Below are positions 20,157-64,000 of a stretch of 64,000 nucleotides of DNA, one piece after another (positions within the stretch are counted from its first letter, which is position 1; every line of letters begins with the position of its first letter). Position numbers and translations under genes: made by a program. The stretch is from an uncultured virus (IMG/VR IMGVR_UViG_3300025543_000015) (taxonomy: Duplodnaviria; Heunggongvirae; Uroviricota; Caudoviricetes; Crassvirales): IMG/VR virus record IMGVR_UViG_3300025543_000015; one strand, 5' to 3'. The notes beneath the pieces were generated by a model. That model saw only the letters and a program-made list of their open reading frames with translations, was not told where the DNA came from and searched no databases.

Positions 20157-23100
20157 ATGAACGAACTACAAGAGATTGTCAAAAAGATGATTGCTGCAGG
20201 TGAGTCGGAAGAGAACATCGCAATAGTTATTAAGCAATATAATAACAAAGCAACACCCAAAGAAGCCGAAGTACCAAAGGGGGACGAAGCCGAAGTGGTA
20301 AGTGGGGTTTCGGATTCTACTTCGGCAGAAAGTATTTCTTCATCGGACTCCGAGACACAGAATAAATTTCCACAAATTGAGAGACAAGACCCTACCCAAG
20401 AAGAAATGGATGGGGTAAATGCTTATGTAGATAAGTTAAATGCTCCTATAGAAATTGGAGAGGATGCAGCTAGAGCAATAACAGCTCCGGAATTGGCTAA
20501 AGAACAAAAAGAATTAGAGGCTATTATTGCCTCTCGTCCTATTGTAGCTGACAACTCAAAAGAGGAAGCAAGATTAAAAGAAATCAACGATGCATTTGAT
20601 AGACTTGCTGAGCCTCCAAAATCAATTAGAAAAATAAGCAATGAACAAATTGCTGAACTAGATAAGAAGCAAGACGAACTAACTACAAAAGCTGTTCGAC
20701 TAGCTAAGGGTACTGATTTCTCTGTTGAAGAGATTTTAACTAATGATGGTACTTATCAAGACATTATAAAACAAAAGAATAAACTACACGACCAAAAACG
20801 TCTAGAGGACGAAGTGATTAACAGGGTTGTTGAAGATACTAACTCAAACCAAGATGGATTTTTTGGTAAGGTTGGTAGAATGTTTGGTGGTGGTGACGAA
20901 GAGGTTACTCAAACAGCTAAGCTTTCAGATGCTATAGAAGAAGAGATACTACTATCACTAAAAGGAGATAATAGACAAAAAGAGAAGATAGCTAAAGGTT
21001 ACGCAACACTAGATGAAAAAGAAACACTTATAGCAAATGCTAAGGTTAAAGTAATCACTGCTGAGAAGGAGTCTATTATAAACAAAGCAAAAGCTGCTAG
21101 AGCAGAAATTGAAGACCCTGCAGAACTAGAGAGAACATTACTAAACCTACAAACTAATTATGATGCTTTGTTAGGTCAAGTAGGTTTCGATAAAGCTAAA
21201 GGAATATTAAATAACGCATTTGAGAAGACTGACAAGAGCCAAGCATTTGATGAAATACTATCTGATGATGGATTCTTCGGTACTACAGCAGATATGATTA
21301 CAACGCTTGGAGAAGGTGTTACTCAGATAGCTTTAAAGGGTACTGTAGGCTTTACAGCAGATATTATGTCTTCTATTGGTGACTTAGGCTTCGATAGAGA
21401 CGAATACAGCGTGTTTGATGCATTTTCTGATACGGTTGGACAGATAACAAACTATAACTATTTACCTACCTCTAAAGCAGCTAATACGAGGTTGTTTGAT
21501 GATGCAGGAAATTTAAACCTTACAGGAAAGACTATTTCTAAATCTTTCGCTGAGACTATACCATTTACATTAGCAATTATAAACGATGCTAGAAGAGGTA
21601 AGATAACAAATCTTGAAGTAGGTTTAGGTAAGCTAGTTAGTGGTACTAGAAGTGCAAAGATGACTCAAAGCTTAAGGCTTATTGATTCAGCATTTAGACA
21701 CACATTTTCAGATAACATAGTACAGGCAGAGGATTTAGGTCTTACAGGTAATGATGGTAAAATATACGCTACAACAATGTCTTCTGTTGAAGGTTTCGCT
21801 GAGATGGTTATGCCGGATACAAGATTCTTTTCAACTACAGTAGGAGATAATTTAAAGAGAGCTTTTGTAAGAGACTTAAAATCTGCAGCTAGTAAAAAAG
21901 CTAGAGTACAGGTTGCTAAAAACTTCATGGGTAATGTAATCGGGGAACTTGGTGAGGAAGAGATTGTTCTTGCTGCACAAGACTTGATGGGCTATGCTAT
22001 GGTTGTAGGTCACGAGAACTCAGAATTTTGGGATATTGCAAACCAAAAACAATTAGCAGCAGCTACAATAATTATGTCTACTCCTTTAAGTGGTTTAAAC
22101 CTTAGAAGAGATTACAAGGGTAACATAATGGATTTCTACAGTAAGGTGTCTGAGAATATTAACGGTATTACAGAGGACTTAAGAACAGAACTTGAGCTAC
22201 CTCATCACACTACAGAAACTAAGCAACAAATAACTAACGCTATATCTTGGGCTAATAACTTGAACAAAGCTATTACACTAGCTCCGGAGGGAGTTACAGG
22301 AAAGCAAGTTGACTTATTAATGGAGAAAGAAGCATTGGTACAAGAGAAGAAAAATCTTGACCCTGCTTTCCACGCACCTATAAATGAAAAAATTAAAGCA
22401 TTAGAGGCTAAGATTGAGCCTATGAATGCTAAGACCAAAGAGGTTACAGCAGCAGCCGAAAAGAAACAAAAAGAAGAAGATGCAAAACGAAAAGAACGAG
22501 AGCAAGCAGCACGAGCAAAAAGAGCTGCAGCAAAGGATGTCGGGACTAGAAAAACTAGTGAGACAACAGAAACCAAAAGTGTTGAGCAGCAGGGCGTTCA
22601 AGCCGAGGGTAAGAAAGAAGTAGGTAAACCTTACACAGCAGAAGAAGTACAAGAGACTACAGATGCTAAAGCTTTCGTAGTAGCTCAACAAACAGCTATG
22701 GCTAACAGAAAGGAAGACTCTAAACAAGTTGAAATCCTAGATGAAAAAACAGCTCAAAAAATTGTTGACGATGGTGGTAAATTATTCGTAACATCTGATG
22801 GTAAATCCGGAGGATACGTTAAGAAAGATGGTTACATGGGAGGTCTATTCAAAGACCCTACAGCTAACCGTTCACAAGCTGCAAAAGTATTACAAGAAGC
22901 TAGAGTAAAAGCAGGTGGTAAATTTTTCGATGCATTCGGTATCAATACTGAAACAGAAAAAGGTACTACCCTAGAGGACATCTATATCAAGAACGGATTC
23001 AGACCTGTTGCTAGATTATCTTTTGATGCAAACCAAGCACCTAAAGGATGGGAACAAACTAATCTTAAAGAGAGACCGGATAACGTATTCTTCGTCTATG

Positions 23101-26100
23101 ACCCTGCTTACAAAGCTAAGATAGGTGAAGGTCAGAGAATGGAAAACTATGACGATGCATACAAGTTAGCTGAAAGTTTCAAAAAAGGAAATCAGAATAC
23201 AGCATTCTTTACAGGTAAAGCTGCAGAAGCTTCTAGTAAAGTTCCTTATAAGCCTGTACTAAAGGTTGTGGATAAAAACTCTCCTGTAGCGAAAGCTTAT
23301 GACATTTATTCAGCAGGTGGTAACTTCACAGGTCATATATCTAAGATGATTGCAGGTTTCGCTGAGAAACAAATAAAAGTTGCTGAGGCTATTGTAAAAG
23401 GTAAATTCAAAAGCTTCCTTGACATTGGTGCATCTGAGGGTGGATTAGTTAAGACTGTTGCATCACTAGGTGTAGACAAAGCTGTTGGTATTGACCCTAA
23501 TACTCAAATGATTGCTAACTTCAACTCTACTCCTGCAGTAAAAGGAGCTGAGCTTAGACAAGAGGCATTCCTTGCTTCATGGACTGAGGGTGATGGCACT
23601 AAAATCAACGAGTTTAAACCAAAAGAAAAATTTGAAGTGGTTAACGAAGATTTCGCTTTCCAATTCATGAACAACGATAGAAAAGCTCAAGTAGAAGCTG
23701 TTAAAGGTATGATGACTGACGATGGTGTATTTATTACATCTGAGAAGTTTCATACAGCAAACAGTGAAGCTAATGAGCAAAAGAAATATGACCACCAAAA
23801 GAAGTACTTCAACGAAAGTGAACTAACTGAGGATAAGCAAACCATTATTAGTGGTATGGCTTCTGACATGGTTGGTGATACTGAGTACTTCCAAACTCTT
23901 AAAGATAATTTTGCTTTTGTAGAGGAATTTTGGAATGCAGGTGACTTCAAAGGATACCTAGCATCTGACTCTCAAGCTAAGCTTAATGAGATGAAGAAAA
24001 ATATTGGTGACCTATCTAGTGAGTTCACAGATAAAGAGTCTCAAACATCTAATGAAAATTTAGCTAAGGTAGAAGCTGAGGCTGAACAATTAAACAATGA
24101 GTTAGAGGACTTTTTAGGTGAGGCAAACCCTAACCTACAATTAGACTCTAAAAAAGAAATAACATCCGAAGAGAAGAAGCAAGAGTTAGTAGCTGAGGCT
24201 ACTGCTATGATGGAAGCTGTAGAAGGTGATGGATTTACTGAGGAAGCCTTTACTGCTGAAAATGAACCAAAAGTTGAGGTAACACCTATCACAGTTAAAG
24301 AGAATAGTAAATTAGCTAGTTCTCTTAAGAAGATGGGTCTTAAGGATTTAGTAGGTAAGAAAGTAAACCTAGTAATGGCTGACCAATTAAAGGTTGGTAC
24401 TGTAGATATTAACGGTAAAAAGCTTAGAAGAATGGGTGGACACTTCTTTCCTCTTATAAAAGAGTTGAGAGGTAAAGTTGCTTGGGCTTCTATTAATGAG
24501 ACTGCAGCAATTAAAATTGTTCGTGGTGCTATTAAATCTGACTACACAGTGGTATATAACATGTATCCAAATGCTGTAGATTCAAATTTAGCTATACTTG
24601 AAACAATGATTGAGTCTGTAGCTGCTCTTCCAAAAGCTGTTAATAAGCAAGTATTCGAAGAGTTTAAAACAATGCTACAAACAGGTGTATATGGTGAAGG
24701 TGGTAGAGATACTGAGAAGGTACGTAAATTTGCTGCAGAAGCTAAAAACTTTGGTGATATAGTTGCAGGTATTGGTACACTAGGTGTTGATACAAAAGCT
24801 GCTATCCTTAAGAAGGCTTTACCTTCTAAGAGGGTTAAAGCTTCAACTAAGCTAGGTAGAATATTACAGGATAATAAAATTGATATAGAGGATTTAAGAG
24901 CTCTAAACGTAGAACAGTTTGCTGCAGAATTGCCTGCAGGTGCTATGACTATGGTATTAGAGGTTCACGATAAAAATGGTAACAAAGTTACTTCTGAGAC
25001 TGAGAGGGAAGCATTAATGACTCCGGCTCAACAAAAAGCAGAAGGATTACCAACACATCAAAACTACGATATTTACGTTAGAGGTAAAGCTGTAGCCATG
25101 CTAGAGGAAACTGTTCCATTTTGGAATATGTATAAATCTGCTATGAGCACAATTAACGCTAAGGTAACAGGATTACTTAAACATGGTAAAGGAGAAAAAG
25201 CTAGAGCTTTCACAGCTAAAGAGGCTTATTCAAATGCTATGAGAAGTGCTGATTCTACAGCATCTCAATCTAAAGGATTATCTGAACCGGATGTAAGTAT
25301 GTACGAGAAGTTTATCTCTTTATTAGGAAGAGCTTTCCCTTCTGTACAAGTTATTACAGACACAGCCGAGTTTAACACATTAATGGAAAACTTAACTGCT
25401 AAAGCTTTAACCACTAAAAGTGGTAAAGTTTACGGAGCTGTTTACCAAGGTAAGCTATACTTAAATTCGGGTCTAGCTAACTTTAATACTCCTATTCACG
25501 AGTACGGTCACGTTTGGATTAACACTGTTAAAGAAACTAACAAATCTCTTTATAACAAAGGTATGTCCCTAGTCAAAGGTTCAGAATATGAGGCTTCAAT
25601 ATTAGAGAGTAAAGAGTATACCAAGGTTACTAAACAAATGTTAAAAGAAGGAGCTACACAGGAAGAGGTAGACAATTATATACAAGAGGAAGCTCTAGCA
25701 ACTGCTATTGGAGATAAAGGTGAAGCATTCGTAAAAGCTGCACAAAATAAAAACTTCACCAATTGGTTAAATCAGCTATTCTCATTCGTTAAAAAACTAA
25801 CAGGTATCTCTAAGTATAGTGCTAAGCAATTACAGGATATTACTTTAGGTGAGTTTACTCAAGCTGTGGCTGTAGATATTATGTCCGGTAACGAGGTATT
25901 TAAGAAAGGACAGGTTCAAACTTTGAATGATGCCCTTCAATTATCTATGGGTACAGGCAAATCCTTACAAGAGATTGTAGAGTTTGCAAGAGAAAAAGGA
26001 TATGAGGATGCAGTTATTAAAGCTGCACTAGCTAAGCAAGGTTTCACAAGAGTTCAAGCTGAGACTGCACTAGCCACTATCATTCCTAAAGCAGTTGCAA

Positions 26101-29100
26101 AAGGAGCTGCTGAGGTAGTTAGAACAAATAAACAAAGCAACCTTAAAGCTGATGTGGATGCTGTAGGTATTGCACATGTTAAGAGCACTAAGTGGTATAG
26201 AGGTTTAACAACCAACCAAAAGGATGCACTTAACAAGAAAGGTATCTCAGAGATATTAGGTGGTATGGAAGCTTCATTAAGAAAAGGCTCACAACCTAAT
26301 AAAGAAGGTAAAGCTTTTAGAAATACAGTAAAAGAGGTTACAGGTCAAACAGACCAATCTAGAACTATTGTATCAACTGAGGCTAAGCTTCTTAAAGATA
26401 AATTCAAAGCTATGGAGCGTGGTGCTAAGATTGGTGCTGCAGAGATAAAGAAATTGAAAGCTGAGTTTATTAAAGAGATTTCTGCTAAGCTTAAGGAAAT
26501 AGTTAATAACAAATCTATGTCACTAGCTGAGGCTCGTAGAATATTATCTGCAGTTAACCAGCTTACATTTAGTAACTACGATAGAGTTGCACCATTGGTT
26601 GACAAGGTTATTGACACTATAGAAAATAAAGGTATCAGAAGACAAATAAAACAGACTAAGACTAGATTAAGAAAGTCTTCAAGGTCTGAGAGAAATCCTG
26701 TTAACATGAGAGAGCTTGCAAAACAAGCTGTTAAAGTTAATGAGGCTCACCTTACTTATGCTCAAAGAGTAATATACAATGATATACTATCTGAAATAGC
26801 TAACGGATTCAAAGCTTCTTCAAATAAGAACTACAGAATGCCGAATGAAGAGGATATGATTAAGTCATTAGAGGCTCTTAACAAAGCTGCAGATACAGCT
26901 AGGTTACAGAAGTTAGCTGAGACAATGGGTATTGATGGCTCAAACCTTACTGTTGATGAGCTTGTAGCTTTATTAGAGTCTGAAAATGTAGACGAAGCTA
27001 TTGATGAGATGAAAGCTGAGAAACAAAAGGCAGCTAGAAAAGCTCTTGAGAAACAAGCTGAGTATGCTAGAATGGCGTTAGAGATAGTTGATGAGGCAGA
27101 TATGTCAGAGCAGGAGAGAAAAGACGTTAGAACGCTTCAAAACGCTGATTTAACTTTATTGTCTTCTACAGACCTTAGAGATTTAATTAAGATTGTGGAT
27201 AACATCGCTGAGAATAATAGCTTTGCATCATCCGGAAGTCTAATCTCTAAAGTAAGAGCTTACACAGCTTCAAATGAAGCAGTAGGAGTTTTCAATAAGG
27301 ATGAGTTAAGCATGGTTAGAAAGACTATAATCACAGACTTAAAATCATTAGCTCTTATCTTTAAGAAGGTATTCATGAACACTAAGAAATCGGCTGTATT
27401 TAATAAGCTGTCGGGTCTTGGTAAATTGGGTATGGCTTACACTAGTCACAAGAAAGCTATGAATGCTTTAGCTAAAGAGTACGATAAAATGTTCGCACAG
27501 TTAAGTAAAAAGAATAAAGGTTTAGCTAAGCCGGAGAACACAATGCTCAGAGGTTTAGTTGGACAATTAATTCAAGGTACAACTGCTGAGGATTTTGATA
27601 TAAACAAATCTAGAATAGAAGACCACATAGCACAGTCTAAAAAAGCTCAAGCTAAAAGTACTAGACTAGGTGTTGACGTTTTAGAAAAACAATATGAGAA
27701 ACTAAAAAATCTAAAATCTCAAGATGAGGTTATAAAATATACTAAAGGACTAAACGATGGTAATTGGGAGATAGTTGATTTTTGGTTAAATCACTTTGAC
27801 TCACAAAAGGATGCATTAAAATATAACACTGAGACTATACACGGTAAATCATTTGAAGAGGTTGTGGGTAACTACTTACCAATAAAAATGAAAGCTGATG
27901 GTAAAGTTGTTGAGGATATAGATAACCAACCATTCTTTGATAGAAATGGATTAGCTGCATCTAGTGCATCACCAACTACAATTAAGAGAACTAAGACTAA
28001 GAAGCTTCCTGCAGGTCGTGTATTAGATTTAGATTTTGATTCAGTGATGTTTAATAAAGCTTCTGCAGTATCTATTGACATAGAAACCTCAGCAGCTTAT
28101 AAAGATGTATACAACTTCTTTAGAAGCCCTAACATGGAAAAAATGTTTGGTAATGAAACTATTGGAGTATTTAATAAGAAGTTAGCTGAGATGAGAAAGG
28201 TTCAATTAGGAATTTCTAGTATGAACTTAAATGAAGATGAGGTAACTAAAAATATAACTAAGATTGAAAGAGTTTGGAAATCTGTAGCTACAACTATTGG
28301 ATTAGGTTCTATCACTCAGTACCCTAAGCAGTATATCTCTGTAGCATTTAACGTTATGGCTCACTTAGGTGGACAAAGCGACTTAATGTTCAAAGCTATG
28401 TTTACTGATAAGACTAAAATTCCATTATTAGATATGGTTTCTATATCGTTAAGAGGGGAAACTCAAGCAGGTACAATCACAGGTGGTAATAGAATTTCAG
28501 AAGCTGAAAAGAAAGCTACTAAAGCTATTGCAGGGCAGGTTGCTCAGTTTACAGGTGAGGCTGCAAGTAAAGTTAGGGAGGCACTATTCTTCTCATTAAG
28601 AAAGGGTGATGTTAACGTGGCTAAATCTTCTTGGATTGCTTTCTACCAAAAGTATTTACAGGATGCAGGAGAGACTGATATTGACATGACTACAGAGCAT
28701 TTAAGAAAGGACGAGAAGTTAAGACAAGAGGCAATCTCTTATGCTGAGCTTAAGGTAGAGGAAACACAAATTTCTTCTGATGAGTCTAGAGGCTCTGAGT
28801 TCTACCAATCTAAATCTGTTGATAGGTCTATTTTGAGAAGTATATTCTTACCTTACCAATCGTTCAACATCAACTCAAAAATGAGAATGATGAATGACTT
28901 AGGAATATTAAGTAGCAAGAGAGCTAGTAAAGAAGATAAACGAGAAGCTGCTGCATCTTTAACAGGTACAACTGCTGAGGTTATTACGTTCCACTCAATG
29001 AAGTATTACGTATTAGCTCAAGTGTTTGCTTTAGGTAAATCAGCTTTAGAGGATATGTTCGGATTGGAGCCACCGGAAGAGGATGAAGATGCTAAACAAG

Positions 29101-29606
29101 CTTTTGTATTCAAACAATGGTACTCAGCTTTAGCTAAAGATTTAAACCCCCTATCAATTGGTTCATTTACTGAGGATATTAGTATTGAGGTATTAAACCT
29201 TATTCAATACCTTGCTGAGGCAGAGGGTGACGAAGCTTATATGGATTTCATTAAGCGTAAGAGAGATGACGGAGGACAAATGTTCTACAGATATAAAGAT
29301 AAAGAAGAAAGAGGTCAAGCGTTTGGTGCTAGCTTATTAGGTGGTGGGGGTCTATACCAAATTCCATATACGCAAGCTGCAGAGATGCTTGACAATTTCG
29401 AACTAATTAATACTCAAACTAGAAGAGATGATTATGGTAATTTATTTGAGTATGATTTTGATTCTAGTCAACAACAGTTCTTAAAATTATCATTTGCTGC
29501 AGAGTTTATCTCCTTATTTGGATTAGGTGAAGCAGACTCTAGGAGAGTTATGAGAAAGATTAGAAGAGATATAACAAAGAATACTAAAAAACAAAAAATT
29601 AATTAA
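20157..29606 (+). CDS. giant polyvalent internal virion protein (GNAT-like, SAM-methyltransferase and zincin metallopeptidase domains)
   Basis: 3149 aa; IYIKNGFRPVAR (about 22980), FLDIGASEGG SAM-binding motif (about 23415), TPIHEYGHVW...QEEALATAIG (about 25490-25710). Confidence 0.7.
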   Translation: MNELQEIVKKMIAAGESEENIAIVIKQYNNKATPKEAEVPKGDEAEVVSGVSDSTSAESISSSDSETQNKFPQIERQDPTQEEMDGVNAYVDKLNAPIEIGEDAARAITAPELAKEQKELEAIIASRPIVADNSKEEARLKEINDAFDRLAEPPKSIRKISNEQIAELDKKQDELTTKAVRLAKGTDFSVEEILTNDGTYQDIIKQKNKLHDQKRLEDEVINRVVEDTNSNQDGFFGKVGRMFGGGDEEVTQTAKLSDAIEEEILLSLKGDNRQKEKIAKGYATLDEKETLIANAKVKVITAEKESIINKAKAARAEIEDPAELERTLLNLQTNYDALLGQVGFDKAKGILNNAFEKTDKSQAFDEILSDDGFFGTTADMITTLGEGVTQIALKGTVGFTADIMSSIGDLGFDRDEYSVFDAFSDTVGQITNYNYLPTSKAANTRLFDDAGNLNLTGKTISKSFAETIPFTLAIINDARRGKITNLEVGLGKLVSGTRSAKMTQSLRLIDSAFRHTFSDNIVQAEDLGLTGNDGKIYATTMSSVEGFAEMVMPDTRFFSTTVGDNLKRAFVRDLKSAASKKARVQVAKNFMGNVIGELGEEEIVLAAQDLMGYAMVVGHENSEFWDIANQKQLAAATIIMSTPLSGLNLRRDYKGNIMDFYSKVSENINGITEDLRTELELPHHTTETKQQITNAISWANNLNKAITLAPEGVTGKQVDLLMEKEALVQEKKNLDPAFHAPINEKIKALEAKIEPMNAKTKEVTAAAEKKQKEEDAKRKEREQAARAKRAAAKDVGTRKTSETTETKSVEQQGVQAEGKKEVGKPYTAEEVQETTDAKAFVVAQQTAMANRKEDSKQVEILDEKTAQKIVDDGGKLFVTSDGKSGGYVKKDGYMGGLFKDPTANRSQAAKVLQEARVKAGGKFFDAFGINTETEKGTTLEDIYIKNGFRPVARLSFDANQAPKGWEQTNLKERPDNVFFVYDPAYKAKIGEGQRMENYDDAYKLAESFKKGNQNTAFFTGKAAEASSKVPYKPVLKVVDKNSPVAKAYDIYSAGGNFTGHISKMIAGFAEKQIKVAEAIVKGKFKSFLDIGASEGGLVKTVASLGVDKAVGIDPNTQMIANFNSTPAVKGAELRQEAFLASWTEGDGTKINEFKPKEKFEVVNEDFAFQFMNNDRKAQVEAVKGMMTDDGVFITSEKFHTANSEANEQKKYDHQKKYFNESELTEDKQTIISGMASDMVGDTEYFQTLKDNFAFVEEFWNAGDFKGYLASDSQAKLNEMKKNIGDLSSEFTDKESQTSNENLAKVEAEAEQLNNELEDFLGEANPNLQLDSKKEITSEEKKQELVAEATAMMEAVEGDGFTEEAFTAENEPKVEVTPITVKENSKLASSLKKMGLKDLVGKKVNLVMADQLKVGTVDINGKKLRRMGGHFFPLIKELRGKVAWASINETAAIKIVRGAIKSDYTVVYNMYPNAVDSNLAILETMIESVAALPKAVNKQVFEEFKTMLQTGVYGEGGRDTEKVRKFAAEAKNFGDIVAGIGTLGVDTKAAILKKALPSKRVKASTKLGRILQDNKIDIEDLRALNVEQFAAELPAGAMTMVLEVHDKNGNKVTSETEREALMTPAQQKAEGLPTHQNYDIYVRGKAVAMLEETVPFWNMYKSAMSTINAKVTGLLKHGKGEKARAFTAKEAYSNAMRSADSTASQSKGLSEPDVSMYEKFISLLGRAFPSVQVITDTAEFNTLMENLTAKALTTKSGKVYGAVYQGKLYLNSGLANFNTPIHEYGHVWINTVKETNKSLYNKGMSLVKGSEYEASILESKEYTKVTKQMLKEGATQEEVDNYIQEEALATAIGDKGEAFVKAAQNKNFTNWLNQLFSFVKKLTGISKYSAKQLQDITLGEFTQAVAVDIMSGNEVFKKGQVQTLNDALQLSMGTGKSLQEIVEFAREKGYEDAVIKAALAKQGFTRVQAETALATIIPKAVAKGAAEVVRTNKQSNLKADVDAVGIAHVKSTKWYRGLTTNQKDALNKKGISEILGGMEASLRKGSQPNKEGKAFRNTVKEVTGQTDQSRTIVSTEAKLLKDKFKAMERGAKIGAAEIKKLKAEFIKEISAKLKEIVNNKSMSLAEARRILSAVNQLTFSNYDRVAPLVDKVIDTIENKGIRRQIKQTKTRLRKSSRSERNPVNMRELAKQAVKVNEAHLTYAQRVIYNDILSEIANGFKASSNKNYRMPNEEDMIKSLEALNKAADTARLQKLAETMGIDGSNLTVDELVALLESENVDEAIDEMKAEKQKAARKALEKQAEYARMALEIVDEADMSEQERKDVRTLQNADLTLLSSTDLRDLIKIVDNIAENNSFASSGSLISKVRAYTASNEAVGVFNKDELSMVRKTIITDLKSLALIFKKVFMNTKKSAVFNKLSGLGKLGMAYTSHKKAMNALAKEYDKMFAQLSKKNKGLAKPENTMLRGLVGQLIQGTTAEDFDINKSRIEDHIAQSKKAQAKSTRLGVDVLEKQYEKLKNLKSQDEVIKYTKGLNDGNWEIVDFWLNHFDSQKDALKYNTETIHGKSFEEVVGNYLPIKMKADGKVVEDIDNQPFFDRNGLAASSASPTTIKRTKTKKLPAGRVLDLDFDSVMFNKASAVSIDIETSAAYKDVYNFFRSPNMEKMFGNETIGVFNKKLAEMRKVQLGISSMNLNEDEVTKNITKIERVWKSVATTIGLGSITQYPKQYISVAFNVMAHLGGQSDLMFKAMFTDKTKIPLLDMVSISLRGETQAGTITGGNRISEAEKKATKAIAGQVAQFTGEAASKVREALFFSLRKGDVNVAKSSWIAFYQKYLQDAGETDIDMTTEHLRKDEKLRQEAISYAELKVEETQISSDESRGSEFYQSKSVDRSILRSIFLPYQSFNINSKMRMMNDLGILSSKRASKEDKREAAASLTGTTAEVITFHSMKYYVLAQVFALGKSALEDMFGLEPPEEDEDAKQAFVFKQWYSALAKDLNPLSIGSFTEDISIEVLNLIQYLAEAEGDEAYMDFIKRKRDDGGQMFYRYKDKEERGQAFGASLLGGGGLYQIPYTQAAEMLDNFELINTQTRRDDYGNLFEYDFDSSQQQFLKLSFAAEFISLFGLGEADSRRVMRKIRRDITKNTKKQKIN

Positions 29607-30297: not shown

Positions 30298-30333
30298 AAA
30301 ACCCCCAACCATATCGGAAGGGGGTTTATTTTT
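30298..30333. terminator. bidirectional terminator at convergence of + and - gene blocks
   Basis: AAAACCCCC-AACCATATCGGAA-GGGGGTTTATTTTT. Confidence 0.75.
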
Positions 30334-30334
30334 G

Positions 30335-30402
30335 TGGTCACAGTAGGGATTGAACCTACGACCTATCCCTTATGAGGGGAGTGCTCTACCTCTGAGCTAT
30401 GT
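30335..30402 (-). tRNA. tRNA-CAT (Met or Ile2) with 5' acceptor strand truncated; probable pseudo-tRNA
   Basis: D arm TAGCTCAGAGGTAGAGC, loop CT-CAT-AA, T arm GTAGG-TTCAATC-CCTAC, 3' strand TGTGACC-A; only ACA of the 5' strand pairs. Confidence 0.7.
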
Positions 30403-30404
30403 TG

Positions 30405-30488
30405 TAGCGAGAGTGGGACTCGAACCCACGGGGTCTTTCGACATGGGGATATGAACCCCACAAGCTTCCATCTACTGACTACCTCGCT
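30405..30488 (-). tRNA. tRNA-Met(CAT), initiator-like anticodon stem, long variable arm
   Basis: AGCGAGG/TCTCGCT acceptor, TGGGG-TTCATAT-CCCCA, variable hairpin GTC-GAAA-GAC, GTGGG-TTCGAGT-CCCAC. Confidence 0.8.
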
Positions 30489-30498
30489 ATATATTATG

Positions 30499-30506
30499 CA
30501 AATATA
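30499..30506 (-). promoter_or_regulatory. TAnnTTTG promoter for the CAT tRNAs
   Basis: TATATTTG on - strand 10 nt upstream of the tRNA. Other - strand boxes at 31184, 32121, 34409, 35050, 45750, 51960, 52500, 58224 and 61311. Confidence 0.7.
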
Positions 30507-30554
30507 AGCAAAATTATTTACATAATGTTACATTAACTAACATTTAACTTTTAG

Positions 30555-30641
30555 AGCAGCAGGTGAGATTCGAACTCACGGTGTGACATTATCTGACTAG
30601 CTTGGAAGGCTAGTACAATCGACCAACTATGCGACTGCTGC
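30555..30641 (-). tRNA. tRNA-Gly(TCC) with 17-nt variable region
   Basis: GCAGCAG/CTGCTGC acceptor, U73, CTAGC-CTTCCAA-GCTAG, GTGAG-TTCGAAT-CTCAC. Confidence 0.85.
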
Positions 30642-30647
30642 AATTTG

Positions 30648-30720
30648 TAGAAACAATAGGATTTGAACCTATGACCCTCTCGGTATCAGCGAGGTGCTCT
30701 ACCAACTGAGCTATGCTTCT
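30648..30720 (-). tRNA. tRNA-Ile(GAT)
   Basis: Canonical cloverleaf, loop CT-GAT-AC. Confidence 0.9.
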
Positions 30721-30726
30721 ATTTAG

Positions 30727-30800
30727 TACTCCCTCTTGGACTCGAACCAAGGGCATTCCCCTTAAAAAGGGGGAGCTCTAACCAACTGAGCTAAGGAAGC
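30727..30800 (-). tRNA. tRNA-Lys(TTT)
   Basis: Canonical cloverleaf, loop TT-TTT-AA. Confidence 0.9.
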
Positions 30801-30805
30801 AATTG

Positions 30806-30878
30806 TGGAGAAGAAGGGAATTGAACCCTCGAGGCTTGCAGTGCAAGTGCAAGTGTCTAGCCAACACGACACATCCCC
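30806..30878 (-). tRNA. tRNA-Ala(TGC)
   Basis: G3:U70 pair, loop CT-TGC-AC, GAGGG-TTCAATT-CCCTT. Confidence 0.85.
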
Positions 30879-30881
30879 ATT

Positions 30882-30913
30882 AAAAAAGCCCTAACAAATA
30901 AATGCTAGGGCTT
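30882..30913 (-). terminator. attenuator terminator 1, upstream of tRNA cluster 1
   Basis: AAGCCCTAGC-ATTTATTT-GTTAGGGCTT-TTTT ending 3 nt before tRNA-Ala. Confidence 0.85.
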
Positions 30914-30938
30914 CGGATACGTTAAAATTACCTACAAT

Positions 30939-31013
30939 CTAACATAGCATGGAAAGCCCTAGGAAGTTTCTCCCCACGGTCTTATCAATCGCTATTGTAA
31001 TAATTGTGTTCAT
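30939..31013 (-). CDS. leader peptide 1, MNTIITIAIDKTVGRNFLGLSMLC
   Basis: 24-codon ORF containing CTAGGGCTT, the exact complement of the terminator 5' arm. Confidence 0.75.
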   Translation of the reverse strand: MNTIITIAIDKTVGRNFLGLSMLC

Positions 31014-31030
31014 TGAATGTTTAATCTTTT

Positions 31031-31159
31031 TTACTTGTTAATTTTGTCGTCAATCTTGTCAACGATGCCTGCTACTTTTTTTGCTAGGCTTGGATTGTTT
31101 CTTAATACTAAGAAGAAGCCTACTGCTCCTACTACTACTCCTGCTATAAATGAAATCAT
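31031..31159 (-). CDS. small membrane protein (42 aa)
   Basis: MISFIAGVVVGAVGFFLVLRNNPSLAKKVAGIVDKIDDKINK, downstream of promoter 31184-31191; not in the ORF track. Confidence 0.7.
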   Translation of the reverse strand: MISFIAGVVVGAVGFFLVLRNNPSLAKKVAGIVDKIDDKINK

Positions 31160-31215
31160 ACTTATACTTTTTTAAGTTAGGTGCAAATATACAAAAAAAT
31201 TTTTAATACCACAAA

Positions 31216-31629
31216 TTAATCAGTACCTTTTATTTTTGCATTAGCTACACGATAGTTTCTTTCATCTCTTTTCTTAGCTTTATGTGCTTGAAGTTTCTTA
31301 TCATAAGCAATTTTCTTCTCAGCCCTTTTACGGTCTACAGGATTGGTAGTTCTTGTGTAAGTACCATCATGAGATTTATAACCGGACATTTTACCACCCT
31401 TATTTTTAATGGTAGTGCCTTTATACTTTACCGAAGGTCTGTACTCGCTGTCTTTATTGCCTGTTTTAGCATCTTTTACAGATTTACTAGAAACCTCATA
31501 CTTGCTACCACTTTTTGTTTTAGCTATGTGTGTTTTAGCTTTCTTTTTGTCGGTGTTAGCTGTACTAGCTAATTTTGTTCTTGGGTCAGACAGCTTTACA
31601 GGGTCTGATTTACTTTTTCGTTTTGCCAT
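31216..31629 (-). CDS. Lys-rich basic protein
   Basis: 137 aa, highly basic. Confidence 0.65.
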   Translation of the reverse strand: MAKRKSKSDPVKLSDPRTKLASTANTDKKKAKTHIAKTKSGSKYEVSSKSVKDAKTGNKDSEYRPSVKYKGTTIKNKGGKMSGYKSHDGTYTRTTNPVDRKRAEKKIAYDKKLQAHKAKKRDERNYRVANAKIKGTD

Positions 31630-31631
31630 GT

Positions 31632-32105
31632 TTATTGTTTTTTAGATTCAATTACAAAGATACTAAAATTATCCTTACCCTTAAAAAGCTCATCTAATTG
31701 ACTCTCCCAAAAGTCTATATCTTCATAGGGTCTAAAATTTATAGGTGCTATAGGACTCATCAACCCTGTTCCACTGTGACCAATATTGAAAATTGAATGT
31801 GTTAGCTCATGAAAAACCACTAACTTCAACACTGCTTTATCTAAAGAACAGTAAGAGCTCATAGCCACTATATAACCATCCTTTGTGGCTATCCCTAATG
31901 TTGGGTAGTTAAGGAGATTAGTTAATACAATCATCTGCATGTTATTTATATGTGGAGTAACATCTATACACCTCTCTGCAGCCTCTGCTATATATTCTTC
32001 CACTATTGGCTTGAGTATTGGGTCAATGTGCACATAGGAAGTTTTTTGACCAAAAAAATCCCCTGTAAATAATACAAGGGATATTAACACTAATAATTTT
32101 TTCAT
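31632..32105 (-). CDS. secreted/membrane zinc metallopeptidase (metzincin-like)
   Basis: Signal peptide; HELTHSIFNIGH and LM Met-turn. Confidence 0.75.
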   Translation of the reverse strand: MKKLLVLISLVLFTGDFFGQKTSYVHIDPILKPIVEEYIAEAAERCIDVTPHINNMQMIVLTNLLNYPTLGIATKDGYIVAMSSYCSLDKAVLKLVVFHELTHSIFNIGHSGTGLMSPIAPINFRPYEDIDFWESQLDELFKGKDNFSIFVIESKKQ

Positions 32106-32128
32106 ATCTACCTGTTTTTACAAAGATA

Positions 32129-33055
32129 CTAAAAATTGTTATACGCCACGTTAAAGACTTTAAGACCTAAAGCTCGTGCTCGTCTAACTACTTGTAGCCT
32201 GTCATCAAACATTCCTACAATATAATTATCCTCAGCAATCTTTCTCCACATCTCCTCCTTCACAACCCAATCCGGTCTTTGGTCACCTTTAGGTCTGATG
32301 TATATTTCATCATAAAAAATACCATTATCAGATAACCACTTCTTAGTCTCATCTATACAAACAGCATCTCTGCCTGTACATATTATAACTTTAGTGCTAG
32401 TCATCTCTTCATAGTAGGGTGTCAAAGCTTGTGATATAACCTTAGTAGGATAATCTATTACATCCTCCCCAACCTTGTGCCAATCATAAGGACTTCTAGT
32501 AGCCCTGTCCATATGAGACAATGTTCCATCAATGTCAAATATTACACAATTAGTGTTATCGGGATTTTGACTAAGCTGAACCGGAGTAAAATCTATAGGA
32601 TTTTTAGCCAACTCTACCATTAAACTAGTAAATCTGTTATATTGCTTCTCAATTACGTGCTCTCCAACGCTTCTGCTTCTCATAGAGTCTCTATTTAAGG
32701 CATCTGCCTTGCTGATTTCAAATATCAAAACCTCAGCGTGTACGTTCCAATACTTAAATCTCTCTAAGTACTTGTATGTCAAGTGTGTAGCATCCGCTAT
32801 TACTGTCTTACCAAAATTAAGACCTTCATTGATTAAAGTGTCTTCGTACCTAGTAACCTTCTTTTCAAGACCTGCTACATCATTTCTTAAGTAGTAATCT
32901 TCTATACCTGACTCGGTAAAGCCAAACATAAGCTCTCTGATTTTATCCCTATTGACTATAGTATACTTTGAAGGGTCTTCCAACCACTTCTTGTGAGCCC
33001 AAGTACTTTTACCCGAGCCGCTGATTCCAATTGTTATTATTAAATTTCCTTTCAT
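32129..33055 (-). CDS. pseT: polynucleotide 5'-kinase/3'-phosphatase (T4 PseT-like)
   Basis: P-loop GISGSGKST, VNRDKIR, HAD motif FDIDGT, TGR, RPDWVVK, FDDR. Confidence 0.92.
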   Translation of the reverse strand: MKGNLIITIGISGSGKSTWAHKKWLEDPSKYTIVNRDKIRELMFGFTESGIEDYYLRNDVAGLEKKVTRYEDTLINEGLNFGKTVIADATHLTYKYLERFKYWNVHAEVLIFEISKADALNRDSMRSRSVGEHVIEKQYNRFTSLMVELAKNPIDFTPVQLSQNPDNTNCVIFDIDGTLSHMDRATRSPYDWHKVGEDVIDYPTKVISQALTPYYEEMTSTKVIICTGRDAVCIDETKKWLSDNGIFYDEIYIRPKGDQRPDWVVKEEMWRKIAEDNYIVGMFDDRLQVVRRARALGLKVFNVAYNNF

Positions 33056-33071
33056 TACTTTATTAATTTTA

Positions 33072-34379
33072 TTAGTTCAAAGATTCTATATCAGCTTCAC
33101 CATTATCTAGTTCTTGGCTTTCAAATTCTAAGAACCTAAAGCTCTTAAGCTTATATGACTTACATTCAAATAAATCTTCCACTCTCACAACTACACCTTC
33201 TTCCGGTACTTTGTTTGTACACATGAAGCAGTCTTTTTCGTTGTAAGCCTTCTCTAACCTCTCTATGAAATTTTTTCTCCAAGTCTCTAAGGTAGTGCTG
33301 TAATCAGTGTTGTACCAATCACCTGCTTTACCATAGAAGAATAAGTGAGAAGCTGCTAATCCAACTCTATCACAGAACTCTTTAATCTGAGGGTAGGTAA
33401 GCTCAGTAACTAAACCATCTGGAGTGGTATTGGTGATTCTGTATACCTCTAGCTTGTGCCAAACATTACCTTGGCAACCATAATCAAAATGTTTTTGAAT
33501 AGCTTTACCATTTCTATCGTAACCTAACATTTCACCATATAGAGTCCAACCTTTAGGTATATGCTCACCAATATCATTTTTTATAGTCTCCCACAAGTCA
33601 TAACCAAAGAAGTGGTCTTTAGATTTTGGGTCTTCTAGGTTAGCATTCTTAACCACCTTTCTAGAGCCATAGACTAAATCATACACTAGTTCTGATACAC
33701 TTGCACCAAAAAATTTAGAAACCTTCTCTATAAGGCTTAATTTACGTTTTACTAAAACATTTCCGACCCACCAAGATGTACCGTGTGTTTTATATGTAAT
33801 AGAAATTAAATCTGTAGGCTCAATTTTGTGTATGTTCTTACGAAGATTTTCAGTATCAACATGTAGATGTACTTGACCTTCTACCAATCTTGAAAGCTTT
33901 GGCTTCTTACCAACTCTAGCTTGTGCACCACCCTTAACAGGTACTTGGTACTTCTCAACTAGAAGTTGACCATTAATAGTGTCAAACTCTTTACCTACAT
34001 AATCACCAATATAGCCATCCAACCTACCCCACTGCTCAACAAGTCTAGCAGGTACAATATATCCCATGGATTTCTCACCACGTAGTTTCATAGCCTTAAC
34101 CCTGCAGTTATCCTCAAAGAAACCTTTTTGGTAAGGGTCTGCATTCAATGTATTGTCTCTAAATGAGTTTGTTGACGAGAGTAAGTTTTGAGATATTTTA
34201 CTCTCGATTGGAAAATAGACGTAAATGTCGCCCTCGTTGGCATCTAAACCTGTAATGACATTGTTGAAGTCAATTGAGACCATTTGTAGCCTGTCAGCGT
34301 TAGGATGCTTCTTAAGACCCTTTAACGATACCACCTTACATAAGTAGTTTGGATTTGCGTTTTTACTAATTTCTAACAT
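33072..34379 (-). CDS. RNA ligase (Rnl2/DRB0094-like) with N-terminal tRNA-binding OB-like domain
   Basis: KHPNADRL N-terminus, motif I TYKTHGTS, LYGEM, PEEGVVVR, YKLKSFRF. Confidence 0.85.
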   Translation of the reverse strand: MLEISKNANPNYLCKVVSLKGLKKHPNADRLQMVSIDFNNVITGLDANEGDIYVYFPIESKISQNLLSSTNSFRDNTLNADPYQKGFFEDNCRVKAMKLRGEKSMGYIVPARLVEQWGRLDGYIGDYVGKEFDTINGQLLVEKYQVPVKGGAQARVGKKPKLSRLVEGQVHLHVDTENLRKNIHKIEPTDLISITYKTHGTSWWVGNVLVKRKLSLIEKVSKFFGASVSELVYDLVYGSRKVVKNANLEDPKSKDHFFGYDLWETIKNDIGEHIPKGWTLYGEMLGYDRNGKAIQKHFDYGCQGNVWHKLEVYRITNTTPDGLVTELTYPQIKEFCDRVGLAASHLFFYGKAGDWYNTDYSTTLETWRKNFIERLEKAYNEKDCFMCTNKVPEEGVVVRVEDLFECKSYKLKSFRFLEFESQELDNGEADIESLN

Positions 34380-34455
34380 TTTATTTAAGTTTTATATTAA
34401 ATTCTATGCAAAGATAAGTAAAATAATTTACATGACAATAAAAAAAGTAAAAAAG

Positions 34456-34527
34456 TTTTCCTAGAGAGATTTGAACTCCCACTTCAAGGCTCGTAACCAA
34501 GTGTTCTATCCATTAAACTATAGGAAA
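34456..34527 (-). tRNA. tRNA-Arg(ACG), weak anticodon stem
   Basis: TTTCCTA/TAGGAAA acceptor, loop TT-ACG-AG, GGGAG-TTCAAAT-CTCTC. Confidence 0.75.
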
Positions 34528-34618
34528 ATAATTACCCTAGGGTTTTACTGCAGGTAGCATACCTAGGGTGATAGTGAAGTATTTTTGTCACAAATTTAGC
34601 ATATAATTGTGACAGTAG

Positions 34619-34701
34619 TACCGAGTGTGGGCTTCGAACCCACAAGACACAAGGTCGGCAAGTTTTAAGCCTGCTGCGTTTACCAGTTTCACCAACTCGG
34701 C
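34619..34701 (-). tRNA. tRNA-Leu(TAA)
   Basis: Type II cloverleaf, loop CT-TAA-AA. Confidence 0.9.
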
Positions 34702-34711
34702 ATTTAATCTG

Positions 34712-34792
34712 TAGCATCGGTGGGAATCGAACCCACAAAACTCTAGGGTTTAAGCCTAGGCACTCTACCATTCGCTTTTACGTCACGATGCT
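34712..34792 (-). tRNA. non-canonical tRNA with TAA anticodon (Leu?)
   Basis: AGCATCG/CGATGCT acceptor, CTAGG-CTTAAAC-CCTAG, short variable loop, enlarged D region. Confidence 0.7.
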
Positions 34793-34807
34793 ATTTTGTA
34801 ACATTAG

Positions 34808-34877
34808 TCTAAAAGGTAGGTAACGCTCCTACTTACTCCTACTTCCAAGGCAGGCATGTTACTATAATCGCTTCTAG
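34808..34877 (-). tRNA. tRNA-Pro(TGG), atypical T loop and reduced D arm
   Basis: CTAGAAG/CTTTTAG acceptor, CCTGC-CTTGGAA-GTAGG, T arm GTAGG-AGCGTTA-CCTAC. Confidence 0.65.
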
Positions 34878-34881
34878 GTAT

Positions 34882-34909
34882 AAAAAAACCTCCTAATTGC
34901 TTAGGAGGT
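34882..34909 (-). terminator. attenuator terminator 2, upstream of tRNA cluster 2
   Basis: ACCTCCTAA-GCAA-TTAGGAGGT-TTTTTT ending 4 nt before tRNA-Pro. Confidence 0.85.
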
Positions 34910-34945
34910 CTTTATCTTTATTAATTTAAAACTAAAACATGAATA

Positions 34946-35032
34946 CTAATACCTAAAGTTTACGCATAAAGAGTACTCCCAATTTCCACTAGGTTGTTCC
35001 AAAAGCTCTATATGTAAGCGTAATTTTCTCAT
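34946..35032 (-). CDS. leader peptide 2, MRKLRLHIELLEQPSGNWEYSLCVNFRY
   Basis: 28-codon ORF 17 nt downstream of promoter 35050-35057; contains the antiterminator segment. Confidence 0.75.
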   Translation of the reverse strand: MRKLRLHIELLEQPSGNWEYSLCVNFRY

Positions 35033-35079
35033 TTTTATTATTATCTATGCAAATATACGAATTAAATTAATACCCCTTT

Positions 35080-35271
35080 TTAAAATCTATTAATCCTTTC
35101 GGTAAGAATGTTCAAATAATTAATCATAGCCTTTAGCTGCAGTTTTAAAAGGTCTTGGTCATCTTGGTCTAGCTCATCAAAAGCCTCTGTTAAAATAAAC
35201 TTACCCAACTTCTCCATCTTATCTTTGAGTTCTGTTCCCTCATCAATAACTCTTTGTTTGTAGTCTTCCAT
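35080..35271 (-). CDS. small helical protein (crAss001_48-like)
   Basis: MEDYKQRVIDE..EL..K..KL..FI...LL..Q...M..Y..IL..RI pattern. Confidence 0.65.
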   Translation of the reverse strand: MEDYKQRVIDEGTELKDKMEKLGKFILTEAFDELDQDDQDLLKLQLKAMINYLNILTERINRF

Positions 35272-53209: not shown

Positions 53210-53229
53210 GTTTGTTGCTTTAAAATTAG

Positions 53230-53306
53230 AAGTGGGTGCAGGATTCGAACCTGCGATATACGACGATGAAGACGTAGCCTCTTAACCAACTCAGTCCATA
53301 CCCACT
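53230..53306 (-). tRNA. tRNA-like element with irregular anticodon arm (identity undetermined)
   Basis: AGTGGGT/ACCCACT acceptor, GCAGG-TTCGAAT-CCTGC, TACG-TCTTCATCGT-CGTA. Confidence 0.6.
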
Positions 53307-63826: not shown

Positions 63827-63916
63827 ATGAAAAATTTTAACATATATTATAATTGCTTTAGTTGGTCGAATAACCAACAGGGTGAGTTATGTGTTAAAGT
63901 GAAGATAAGTATTTAG
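63827..63916 (+). CDS. leader peptide 3, MKNFNIYYNCFSWSNNQQGELCVKVKISI
   Basis: 29-codon ORF with A-rich upstream region, ends in TAG, followed by a terminator. Confidence 0.65.
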   Translation: MKNFNIYYNCFSWSNNQQGELCVKVKISI

Positions 63917-63943: not shown

Positions 63944-63976
63944 AAGCCCTTAGCATTTATGTTAGGGGCTTTTTTT
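63944..63976 (+). terminator. attenuator terminator 3
   Basis: AAGCCCTTAGC-ATTTAT-GTTAGGGGCTT-TTTTT, near-identical to terminator 1. Confidence 0.8.
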
Positions 63977-63983
63977 ATTGGGG

Positions 63984-64000
63984 TGCTTTTTAGCTGAGGT
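63984..64000 (+). tRNA. probable 5' end of a tRNA, cut off by the window end
   Basis: 7 nt followed by TA-GCT-GAGGT, resembling positions 1-17 of a tRNA. Confidence 0.35.

Follow-up and report, generated by a model that had tools for sequence, protein, structure and literature searches.

We identified three loci in the window (the 64,000-nucleotide stretch of DNA analysed here, from an uncultured marine Crassvirales phage of Flavobacteria type) at which a leader ORF of 24-29 codons is followed by an intrinsic terminator and then by tRNAs, the arrangement given in a preliminary description of this DNA. Leader ORFs 1 (30939..31013, minus strand), 2 (34946..35032, minus strand) and 3 (63827..63916, plus strand) have 24, 28 and 29 codons, respectively, and all run from ATG to TAG. 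Terminator 1 (30882..30914, minus strand) has a stem of 9-12 bp followed by six T, terminator 2 (34882..34911, minus strand) has a stem with a four-base loop followed by seven T, and terminator 3 (63946..63976, plus strand) is nearly the same in sequence as terminator 1. At each locus the hairpin and its 6-7 T lie 27-37 nt past the leader stop; the stems have energies of -11.0 to -14.4 kcal/mol.

Promoters were read from the sequence as boxes of the form TAnnTTTG, which we take to be the Bacteroidota-type -7 consensus. One at 31184..31191 (minus strand) would head a transcript with a 42-aa ORF and leader 1, and another at 35050..35057 (minus strand), upstream of leader 2, is conserved in contig L005. 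At locus 3 a promoter of its own was not recognisable, and another terminator stands ahead of it. The small hydrophobic 42-aa ORF (31031..31159, minus strand) gave no Pfam family, and it has homologues that precede the leader designated B-type in Maribacter phage Panino, Cellulophaga phage phi40:1 and contig L059. The order promoter, small membrane ORF, leader is common to window locus 1, Panino and L059, and leader 1 itself aligns as a homologue of the B-type leaders of Panino, phi40:1, phi4:1 and L059.

Array 1 (30554..30878, minus strand; ARAGORN and Rfam) encodes tRNAs Ala(tgc), Lys(ttt), Ile(gat) and Gly(tcc). A tRNA-Met(cat), with its own -7 box ahead of it, and one further tRNA (30340-30402, Rfam only) occupy 30340..30488 on the same strand. 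Array 2 (34455..34878, minus strand) consists of non-canonical Pro(UGG)-like and Leu(UAA)-like elements and then Leu(taa) and Arg(acg), of which the last two are the only tool-called tRNAs. The element right after terminator 2 can be drawn as a Pro(UGG)-like cloverleaf, and was not called by ARAGORN, even when relaxed, or by the Rfam tRNA model at E<=10. Array 3 starts at 63980..64000 (plus strand) and continues past the window; the identical contig L021 gives its content as Tyr, Ser, Ser, Asn, Trp, Phe and Cys. Its first tRNA, Tyr(GTA) from ~63980, runs off the window and is an ARAGORN call at relaxed threshold only. The preliminary description had listed Ala, Lys, Ile and Gly behind locus 1, all of which we recovered, and Pro, Leu, Leu and Arg behind locus 2, of which only Leu(taa) and Arg(acg) were called. 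It had also placed a tRNA just past each terminator; this holds for tRNA-Ala, which begins 3 nt past the T run of terminator 1, and, at the relaxed threshold, for tRNA-Tyr at locus 3, while the position at locus 2 belongs to the uncalled Pro-like element.

Between arrays 1 and 2 are a gene for Pnkp, a polynucleotide kinase-phosphatase (32129..33055, minus strand; PF25109 1.5e-34, PF13671 6e-15), and, adjoining it, a gene for a 435-aa protein (33072..34379, minus strand). The latter is probably an RNA ligase, for which relatives were found; its scores for PF09414 (22.3 bits) and PF21189 (26.2 bits) are both just under the 27-bit cut-off. From these domain matches, the two genes probably constitute a tRNA-repair pair.

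The same succession of leader, terminator and array occurs in four cultured Flavobacteriia phages (Maribacter Panino, Cellulophaga phi40:1 and phi4:1, and Tenacibaculum Gundel_1) and at tRNA arrays of six uncultured IMG/VR viral contigs. We compared 20 leader/array pairs (three from the window, one from L005, 11 from the four cultured phages and five from other IMG/VR contigs); because leaders are homologous within types, these represent about six independent designs. The leader frame is open in all 20 (20-32 codons; 19 ATG starts and one GTG), and every pair has a single-hairpin terminator with a T run. Conservation of both ORF and terminator, proposed earlier as a check, was thus found throughout. 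The TAG stop is not a shared feature (five TAG, 13 TAA and two TGA). Where a first tRNA was called (13/20), it lies 51-73 nt past the leader stop. Leader 2 keeps its frame and length between the window and L005 despite synonymous third-position changes and a TAG-to-TGA change of stop, and the differences in the terminator 2 stem appear by eye to be compensatory. In the alignment, the leader peptides show little conservation in their distal parts. In Gundel_1, terminator and array are separated by an HNH gene that carries a promoter-like box of its own.

The codons sampled by the leaders mostly correspond to the tRNAs encoded behind them. Codons 2-15 specify Asn, Thr, Ile, Ala, Asp, Lys, Val, Gly and Arg in leader 1; Arg, Lys, Leu, His, Ile, Glu, Gln, Pro and Ser in leader 2; and Lys, Asn, Phe, Ile, Tyr, Cys, Ser and Trp in leader 3. 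The proximal codon sets are as first described, and jointly they cover 19/19 non-Met amino acids (P 0.004 for triples of random 14-codon windows from genes of the same phage). Similarly, the three arrays of phi4:1 and those of phi40:1 divide nearly all amino acids among them, in agreement with the suggested partition of the code.

At the amino-acid level, 169/280 (60%) of codons 2-15 in the 20 leaders are cognate to the leader's own array, compared to 64/220 (29%) of the distal codons. By position, codons 2-3 are cognate in 10-15% of cases and codons 4-14 in 50-95%, and for codons 17 and later the values are mostly 10-35%. Against 14-codon windows from the window phage's own genes (16,623 codons), empirical p values for single leaders extend from below 6e-5 up to 0.2. 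A matrix of all leaders against all arrays is block-diagonal by array type, with matches of 0.5-0.86 for the leader's own type and 0-0.29 for other types, so that the predicted correlation of leader codons with anticodons stands out from shuffled pairings. Leader 3 provides an out-of-sample case: its array lies outside the window, and 12/14 codons match that array, a value that none of the background windows equals.

Leaders 1 and 2 fit the arrays of relatives better than their own. Leader 1 matches its own array at 7/14 codons (p 0.13) and that of phi4:1 at 13/14, and leader 2 matches its own at 6/14 and that of Panino at 11/14. Window arrays 1 and 2 are reduced, having lost tRNAs that the ancestral codon sets of the leaders still sample. 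The poor fit implies that half of the codons sampled would induce tRNAs unable to relieve the stall. Leader composition follows array composition where the array has unusual content: the L065 array (Tyr, Leu, Ser, Ser, Leu) is matched by its leader at 10/14 codons (p 6e-5), the L076 array (Tyr, Asn, Gln, Glu, Phe) at 9/14, and the second Gundel_1 array (Pro, Gln, Met, Asn, Leu) at 9/14 (p 7e-4). The L087 leader matches at only 2/14, on an array that is mostly uncalled.

The antiterminator that was proposed for the distal half of each leader is clear at only one of the window loci, locus 1. There, a segment at codons 17-21 (30952..30963, minus strand) is complementary to the 5' arm of the terminator and forms a 10-bp pairing of -16.0 kcal/mol (p 0.017 against shuffles; rank 2 of 20). 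The full leader 1 folds with -43.3 kcal/mol (z -5.5). In the minimum free energy prediction for the untranslated RNA, the antiterminator segment is sequestered in a 5' hairpin and the terminator is also formed; locus 1 is the only locus for which such an anti-antiterminator (1:2) pairing is predicted, and as modelled its layout is the classic 1:2 / 2:3 / 3:4 one. The candidate segment in leader 2 (34969..34983, minus strand; codons 17-22) pairs weakly (-9.1 kcal/mol, p 0.2; rank 5 of 20). At locus 3 the duplex test does not support an antiterminator (p 0.6, rank 14 of 20), and the truncated fold has an extended alternative helix (z -4.0).

Across the set, the distal ORF pairs with its own terminator 5' arm better than shuffles that keep base composition only (p<0.05) in 14/20 leaders, and in these the pairing segment is always at codons 16-22. 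Own pairs average -12.3 kcal/mol versus -9.4 over all pairs (permutation p 5e-5, 20 leaders). Thus, in the covariation check that had been suggested, distal ORFs as a set fit their own terminator arms best.

Conserved ORFs and terminators, codon matching and own-arm pairing all support the attenuation reading made in the preliminary description. We consider it probable, at roughly three chances in four, that each of the three loci is a transcription attenuator of the ribosome-mediated, leader-peptide type and controls a tRNA sub-array. Transcription would start at the Bacteroidota -7 promoter, in many relatives almost at the leader ATG, and a ribosome would translate the 20-32 codon leader, in which codons 4 to ~14 are mostly ones that tRNAs encoded just downstream can read. 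With fast decoding, the ribosome would reach the distal ORF and mask codons 16-22, which hold the antiterminator segment; this would let the terminator hairpin form, and transcription would end a few bases short of the first tRNA. If a sampled codon were read slowly, due to a scarce, uncharged or cleaved tRNA, the ribosome would stall upstream, the antiterminator would pair with the terminator 5' arm, and RNA polymerase would read through into the array. Anticodon nucleases or starvation may be the physiological trigger. The outcome would be demand-driven, self-limiting expression of each tRNA set, and the phage probably makes each set only when its ribosomes lack enough of those tRNAs. Three such leader/array modules would jointly divide the amino acids, in a cassette common to unrelated Flavobacteriia phage families.

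Translation could also control the arrays with no competition between terminator and antiterminator, if the ribosome keeps RNA polymerase going or shields the transcript from Rho or RNases. Output of tRNA would then follow translation activity, the polarity would be opposite or different, and the codon match would check tRNA function. This is consistent with the weak or unsupported antiterminators at loci 2 and 3 and in 6/20 leaders, and with A-type leader ORFs that extend ~10 codons beyond the candidate segment. However, a canonical hairpin with a T run is found in 20/20 pairs, leaders as a set are specifically complementary to their own arms (p 5e-5), and the cognate codons end just ahead of the pairing segment, as the stall model predicts. 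We therefore regard this explanation as unlikely.

It is quite improbable that the short reading frames represent either small phage genes of an ordinary kind or 5' regions that are not translated, with the hairpins as their terminators, the tRNAs expressed by leaky read-through, and the codon match derived from shared codon usage. GenBank does list some leaders as hypothetical proteins, and a terminator of identical sequence is present in unrelated contigs that have no tRNAs. However, shared codon usage cannot explain a match to the leader's own array and not to other arrays of the same phage, and the cross-matrix already disfavours this explanation. Further, leaders change with array content (L065, L076, Gundel_1), the match is confined to codons 4-14, and the distal peptide parts are poorly conserved. 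RNA-library contigs that contain the region indicate its presence in RNA libraries only. Scarcely probable is a third explanation, in which the leader RNAs are mainly stable small RNAs released by termination and acting in trans, with a positional link only to the tRNAs: short, high-depth RNA-library contigs from two studies cover the phi38:1 A-type leader (weak evidence, as contigs cannot show ends or levels) and attenuator-derived small RNAs are known (PMC6614838), but codon matching is left unexplained.

In the literature searched, we found no published description of leader-peptide attenuators gating phage tRNA arrays. Among known systems, leader-peptide attenuators regulate amino-acid operons, including trp, his, phe and leu, and the multivalent thr and ilv leaders. 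The phage loci resemble these in having a short leader rich in regulatory codons, an intrinsic terminator just ahead of the controlled genes, an antiterminator that overlaps the terminator 5' arm and, at locus 1, a 5' hairpin predicted to sequester the antiterminator without translation. Unlike the amino-acid operon attenuators, which control biosynthetic enzymes, the phage leaders would control tRNAs. As the controlled genes are neither biosynthesis nor aminoacyl-tRNA synthetase genes, the phage loci would be a variant outside the classical set. Classical leaders use runs of one or two amino acids, whereas a phage leader samples 6-9 amino acids once to a few times. The phage design also differs from classical attenuators in dividing amino acids among several leaders, in being phage-borne and in Bacteroidota, and in its often near-leaderless transcripts.

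T-box riboswitches are similar in that tRNA status is sensed and a choice between terminator and antiterminator is made upstream of translation-related genes. A T-box makes direct contact with a single uncharged tRNA and works without an ORF; in contrast, a codon-bearing ORF is conserved in the phage leaders. The T-box model gave no match in the window at its gathering threshold, and the region 34380-35120 gave none even at E<=10. No Rfam family reaches threshold on the leaders; Phe_leader (RF01859) scores 23.3 bits against a gathering threshold of 55 bits, and the aligned part is the terminator only.

Phage tRNA arrays and tRNA repair are known, as in the T4 Pnk/Rnl1 response to anticodon nucleases and in T5-type tRNA sets. 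As in these systems, a phage tRNA set adjoins genes for Pnkp and a probable RNA ligase, and plausibly keeps translation going when host tRNAs are lost. Gating of tRNA transcription by a codon-matched leader was not found for T4/T5-type systems in the literature searched.

Tentatively, and at somewhat less than even odds, we suggest a mobile three-module "decoding-capacity regulon" in unrelated Flavobacteriia phage families. Its three attenuators would divide the 20 amino acids roughly by first codon letter (C; A and G; T), each inducing only the slowly-read set. Together with Pnkp and RNA ligase, they would form a sensor-and-repair island that counters loss of host tRNAs or defence by anticodon nucleases, with the first tRNA genes under ribosome-mediated attenuation.

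Genes for tRNAs are usually regarded as constitutively expressed or controlled by growth rate. If our reading is correct, attenuation that reads decoding speed is a new control principle for such genes, and phages monitor the translation capacity of the host one codon family at a time. Such monitoring would be relevant to the purpose of phage tRNAs, which may lie in codon usage, in host shut-off, or in evasion of defences that cleave tRNAs. The modules could possibly be used as natural sensors of specific tRNA supply.

There are also consequences for annotation, since leaders may be misfiled as hypothetical proteins and non-canonical first tRNAs missed. In several arrays the first tRNA departs from the canonical form and lacks annotation, and some of the leaders present in GenBank as hypothetical proteins have the wrong start or strand.

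We identified the same arrangement at three loci of the window, each with an ATG-to-TAG frame followed, after 27-37 nt, by a hairpin and 6-7 T. These frames, hairpins and T runs bear out the order of short ORF, intrinsic terminator and tRNA given for all three loci in the preliminary description. Leader 1 (31013..30939, minus strand) has 24 codons, leader 2 (35032..34946, minus) 28 and leader 3 (63827..63916, plus) 29. At locus 1, the T run ends 3 nt from the start of tRNA-Ala. A Bacteroidota-type -7 box lies shortly upstream of leader 2; at locus 1 the box is upstream of a 42-aa membrane-like ORF, which itself precedes leader 1. Locus 3 is without a -7 box and sits behind the terminator of the preceding gene. 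The TAG stop, initially regarded as part of the design, ends all three leaders of the window but only 5 of the 20 leaders compared (13 end in TAA and 2 in TGA), and was dropped as a defining feature. One element of array 3, the tRNA array behind locus 3, looked odd, which raised TAG recoding or a suppressor tRNA as candidates. Both were rejected: the element is Ser(gct) by relaxed ARAGORN, and the single 3149-aa ORF just upstream of the tRNA region (20157-29606, plus) is open in the standard code.

Array 1 (30878..30554, minus) was placed by ARAGORN and Rfam, and encodes Ala, Lys, Ile and Gly tRNAs, as previously read. It is followed by a tRNA-Met with its own promoter box and one extra tRNA (Rfam call only). 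Array 2 had been read as Pro, Leu, Leu and Arg. Leu(taa) and Arg(acg) were called by ARAGORN and Rfam (34701..34455, minus), whereas the Pro and the other Leu correspond to two preceding elements of cloverleaf-like shape, one resembling Pro(UGG) and one Leu(UAA) (34712-34878, minus; counterpart at 5540-5622 of L005, a contig of a closer relative), both uncalled by ARAGORN or the Rfam tRNA model, relaxed settings included. The first tRNA behind many leaders in relatives (Tyr, Ala, Pro) is likewise non-canonical and often unannotated. Genes for polynucleotide kinase-phosphatase (Pnkp) and a probable RNA ligase (32129-34379, minus), which are probably a tRNA-repair pair, lie between arrays 1 and 2, and a small protein of the crAss001_48 family is encoded beside locus 2. 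Contigs L003 and L004, which carry relatives of the ligase, have neither a tRNA nor a leader adjoining the ligase gene, and ARAGORN found zero tRNAs in four others (L006-L009). Thus, there is no fixed link between the leader/array modules and this ligase gene. An isolated tRNA-Glu(ttc) (53229-53306, minus), directly 3' of a protein gene, has neither leader nor terminator ahead of it.

The nearest cultured relatives at the DNA level are marine Flavobacteriia phages; a megablast search of the phage collection with 30300-35100 returned no match. We identified the same leader design ahead of tRNA arrays in four cultured phages: Maribacter phage Panino, Cellulophaga phages phi40:1 (near-identical to phi38:1 and the Calle phages) and phi4:1 (146 kb, from another family), and Tenacibaculum phage Gundel_1. 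Their arrays are fuller than those of the window, with type A comprising Pro, Glu, Gln, His, Leu, Leu and Arg; type B Ala, Lys, Ile, Gly, Met, Asp, Thr, Val and Arg; and type C Tyr, Ser, Ser, Asn, Trp, Phe and (Cys). The ORF and terminator are conserved upstream of these arrays, as a homologous short ORF and terminator precede each A, B and C array. In GenBank the leader ORFs are absent, are annotated as hypothetical proteins that start inside the promoter, or give way to an ORF annotated on the other strand. When IMG/VR was scanned for the promoter-plus-start pattern, at least 120 loci were returned, 80 of them with flanks; among the 80 flanked matches listed, at least eight loci (six distinct sequences, all six kept) have an ORF of no more than 45 codons and a same-strand tRNA within 300 nt. 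New array combinations occur in contigs L065 (Tyr, Leu, Ser, Ser, Leu) and L076 (Tyr, Asn, Gln, Glu, Phe), each with a correspondingly different leader. The second array of Gundel_1 is Pro, Gln, Met, Asn and Leu, and its leader has four Asn codons and zero Arg codons. An exact-pattern scan for leader 2 returned this phage and L005 only. The first 15 codons in L005 are almost the same as in the window, with third-position changes and a TAG-to-TGA change of stop; stem changes between the two terminators are compensatory, and the L005 array is Pro-like, Glu, Gln, His.

Several other features of these modules were noted. The ATG lies 4 nt past the -7 box in many leaders (Panino contig L023 686; phi40:1 contig L025 1384; Gundel_1 contig L027 1938 and 2588; contigs L053, L059, L065 and L076), and the leader mRNAs are therefore probably leaderless or nearly so. 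Most leaders start with Met-Lys-Thr, irrespective of module. The three modules of phi40:1 share a promoter-region repeat of ~35-40 nt (L024 3180-3220, L025 1345-1383, L024 1715-1745). In Gundel_1, one leader terminator is separated from its tRNA array by an inserted HNH endonuclease gene that has a promoter-like box of its own (L027 2793-3299), and the tRNA region of Panino includes a permuted tmRNA between Asp and Thr (L023 2954-3162; Rfam RF04321, 62 bits).

Leader codons were compared with tRNAs in 20 leader/array pairs taken by coordinates, an array being the run of ARAGORN calls that ends at a gap of 350 nt or at the following leader. Codons cognate to the leader's own array make up 169/280 at positions 2-15 (including 0/14 for the second array of Gundel_1, owing to a false relaxed ARAGORN Arg call on the terminator; 9/14 with the default set) versus 64/220 in the distal part. 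Because of this false call, the default ARAGORN set was used for that array. Cognate codons are rare at positions 2-3 (usually Lys, Thr), reach 50-95% at positions 4-14 and stay mostly at 10-35% from codon 17 on. When leader codons were set against the anticodons of all arrays, the resulting cross-matrix was block-diagonal, in line with the correspondence proposed earlier. Leader 1, which resembles type B, scores 0.50 with its own array, 0.86-0.93 with the full B arrays that phi40:1 and phi4:1 carry, and 0.07 with A and C arrays. For leader 2, which resembles type A, the values are 0.43 (own), 0.79 (full A arrays) and 0.07 (C arrays), and for leader 3 (type C) they are 0.86 (own), 0 (A) and 0.14 (B). 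Arrays 1 and 2 are reduced versions of types A and B whose leaders retain ancestral codon sets. Thus, the match is in part a relic in this phage, which speaks against perfect tuning of the circuit in this case. All 19 non-Met amino acids are represented in codons 2-15 of the three leaders (P 0.004), so the observation that, with Met, they span all 20 holds. The array types of phi4:1, phi40:1 and Panino split the code approximately according to the first letter of the codon (C-starting codons in type A, 5/7 anticodons; A- or G-starting in type B, 10/10; T-starting in type C, 4/6); a speculative reason would be common classes of position-37 modification.

Locus 3 provided an out-of-sample test. 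The window stops 20 nt into the sequence behind this locus, and a fragment from the same phage with 100% identity (G001/L001/L002) ends short of it. The tRNAs of array 3 were thus invisible when the codons of leader 3 were first described. A terminator pattern scan recovered a contig, L021, that is identical across the whole of leader 3 and extends further. Behind its terminator are Tyr(gta), Ser(tga), Ser(gct), Asn(gtt), Trp(cca), Phe(gaa) and Cys(gca), of which ARAGORN called some at default and the others only with a relaxed threshold, in part with Rfam support; the probable tRNA noted at the window's end is the Tyr tRNA that opens this array. In leader 3, twelve codons at positions 2-15 specify amino acids of these tRNAs, and no 14-codon stretch drawn from the genes of this phage reaches that number.

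All 20 leaders have a single-hairpin terminator. The best pairing of the ORF (codon 8 on) with the terminator 5' arm lands at codons 16-22, and is better than in 300 composition-preserving shuffles (p<0.05) in 14/20. In an all-versus-all comparison of distal ORFs and terminator arms, own pairs average -12.3 kcal/mol versus -9.4 overall, which 0 of 20,000 permutations matched, also after column normalisation; relatedness within leader types makes this test conservative. The distal-half antiterminator originally proposed is supported for the set and, within the window, best at locus 1 (own pairing -16.0, rank 2 of 20), where the untranslated RNA is predicted to fold into the terminator together with a 5' hairpin that sequesters the antiterminator segment (-43.3 kcal/mol, z -5.5). 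It is weak at locus 2 (-9.1, rank 5 of 20), where the cut fold gave no significant structure (z +0.4). At locus 3 the duplex ranks only 14 of 20 (-7.2), though with the 3' arm removed an extended helix of the distal ORF with the arm region is predicted (z -4.0).

This layout is that of classical leader-peptide attenuation, with sensing codons that end just upstream of the segment able to capture the arm. Stalling of a ribosome within codons 4 to ~12 would leave the antiterminator segment free and allow read-through into the array, whereas one advancing past the sensing codons would mask the segment and permit termination. At locus 1, termination would also be expected without a ribosome, as the segment would be sequestered. 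Observed here are the parts, how they are ordered and conserved, the fit between leader codons and tRNAs, and the alternative pairing; from these we infer translation of the leaders and the polarity, kinetics and trigger of the switch. The tRNA region of phi38:1 is mostly present as contigs in five RNA-library runs from two studies. These span leaders and arrays, break or mis-join at the promoter repeat common to the modules, and indicate presence only, not ends, strand or levels.

Although the proposed mechanism is classical, the control of tRNA genes by leaders that sample many amino acids and divide the code is not. No Rfam family fits the leaders. The preliminary description knew of no precedent for phage tRNA arrays, and our full-text searches, of partial coverage, likewise returned nothing relevant on leader peptides or attenuation with phage tRNA genes, arrays or operons, or on attenuation in Cellulophaga phage tRNAs. 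The Panino paper reports 20 tRNAs, and its passages on tRNA, attenuation, leader and terminator do not mention leaders.

The ~30-nt terminator of locus 1 (30882-30914, minus) also occurs letter-for-letter in eight otherwise unrelated IMG/VR contigs (L013-L017, L019, L020, L022), each time around position 2501; these eight have no tRNA calls. In all three of those run with Rfam (L013, L017, L020) the sequence precedes a freshwater-2 RNA (RF02980), and in two of the three it lies roughly 370 nt past a glutamine riboswitch (RF01739).
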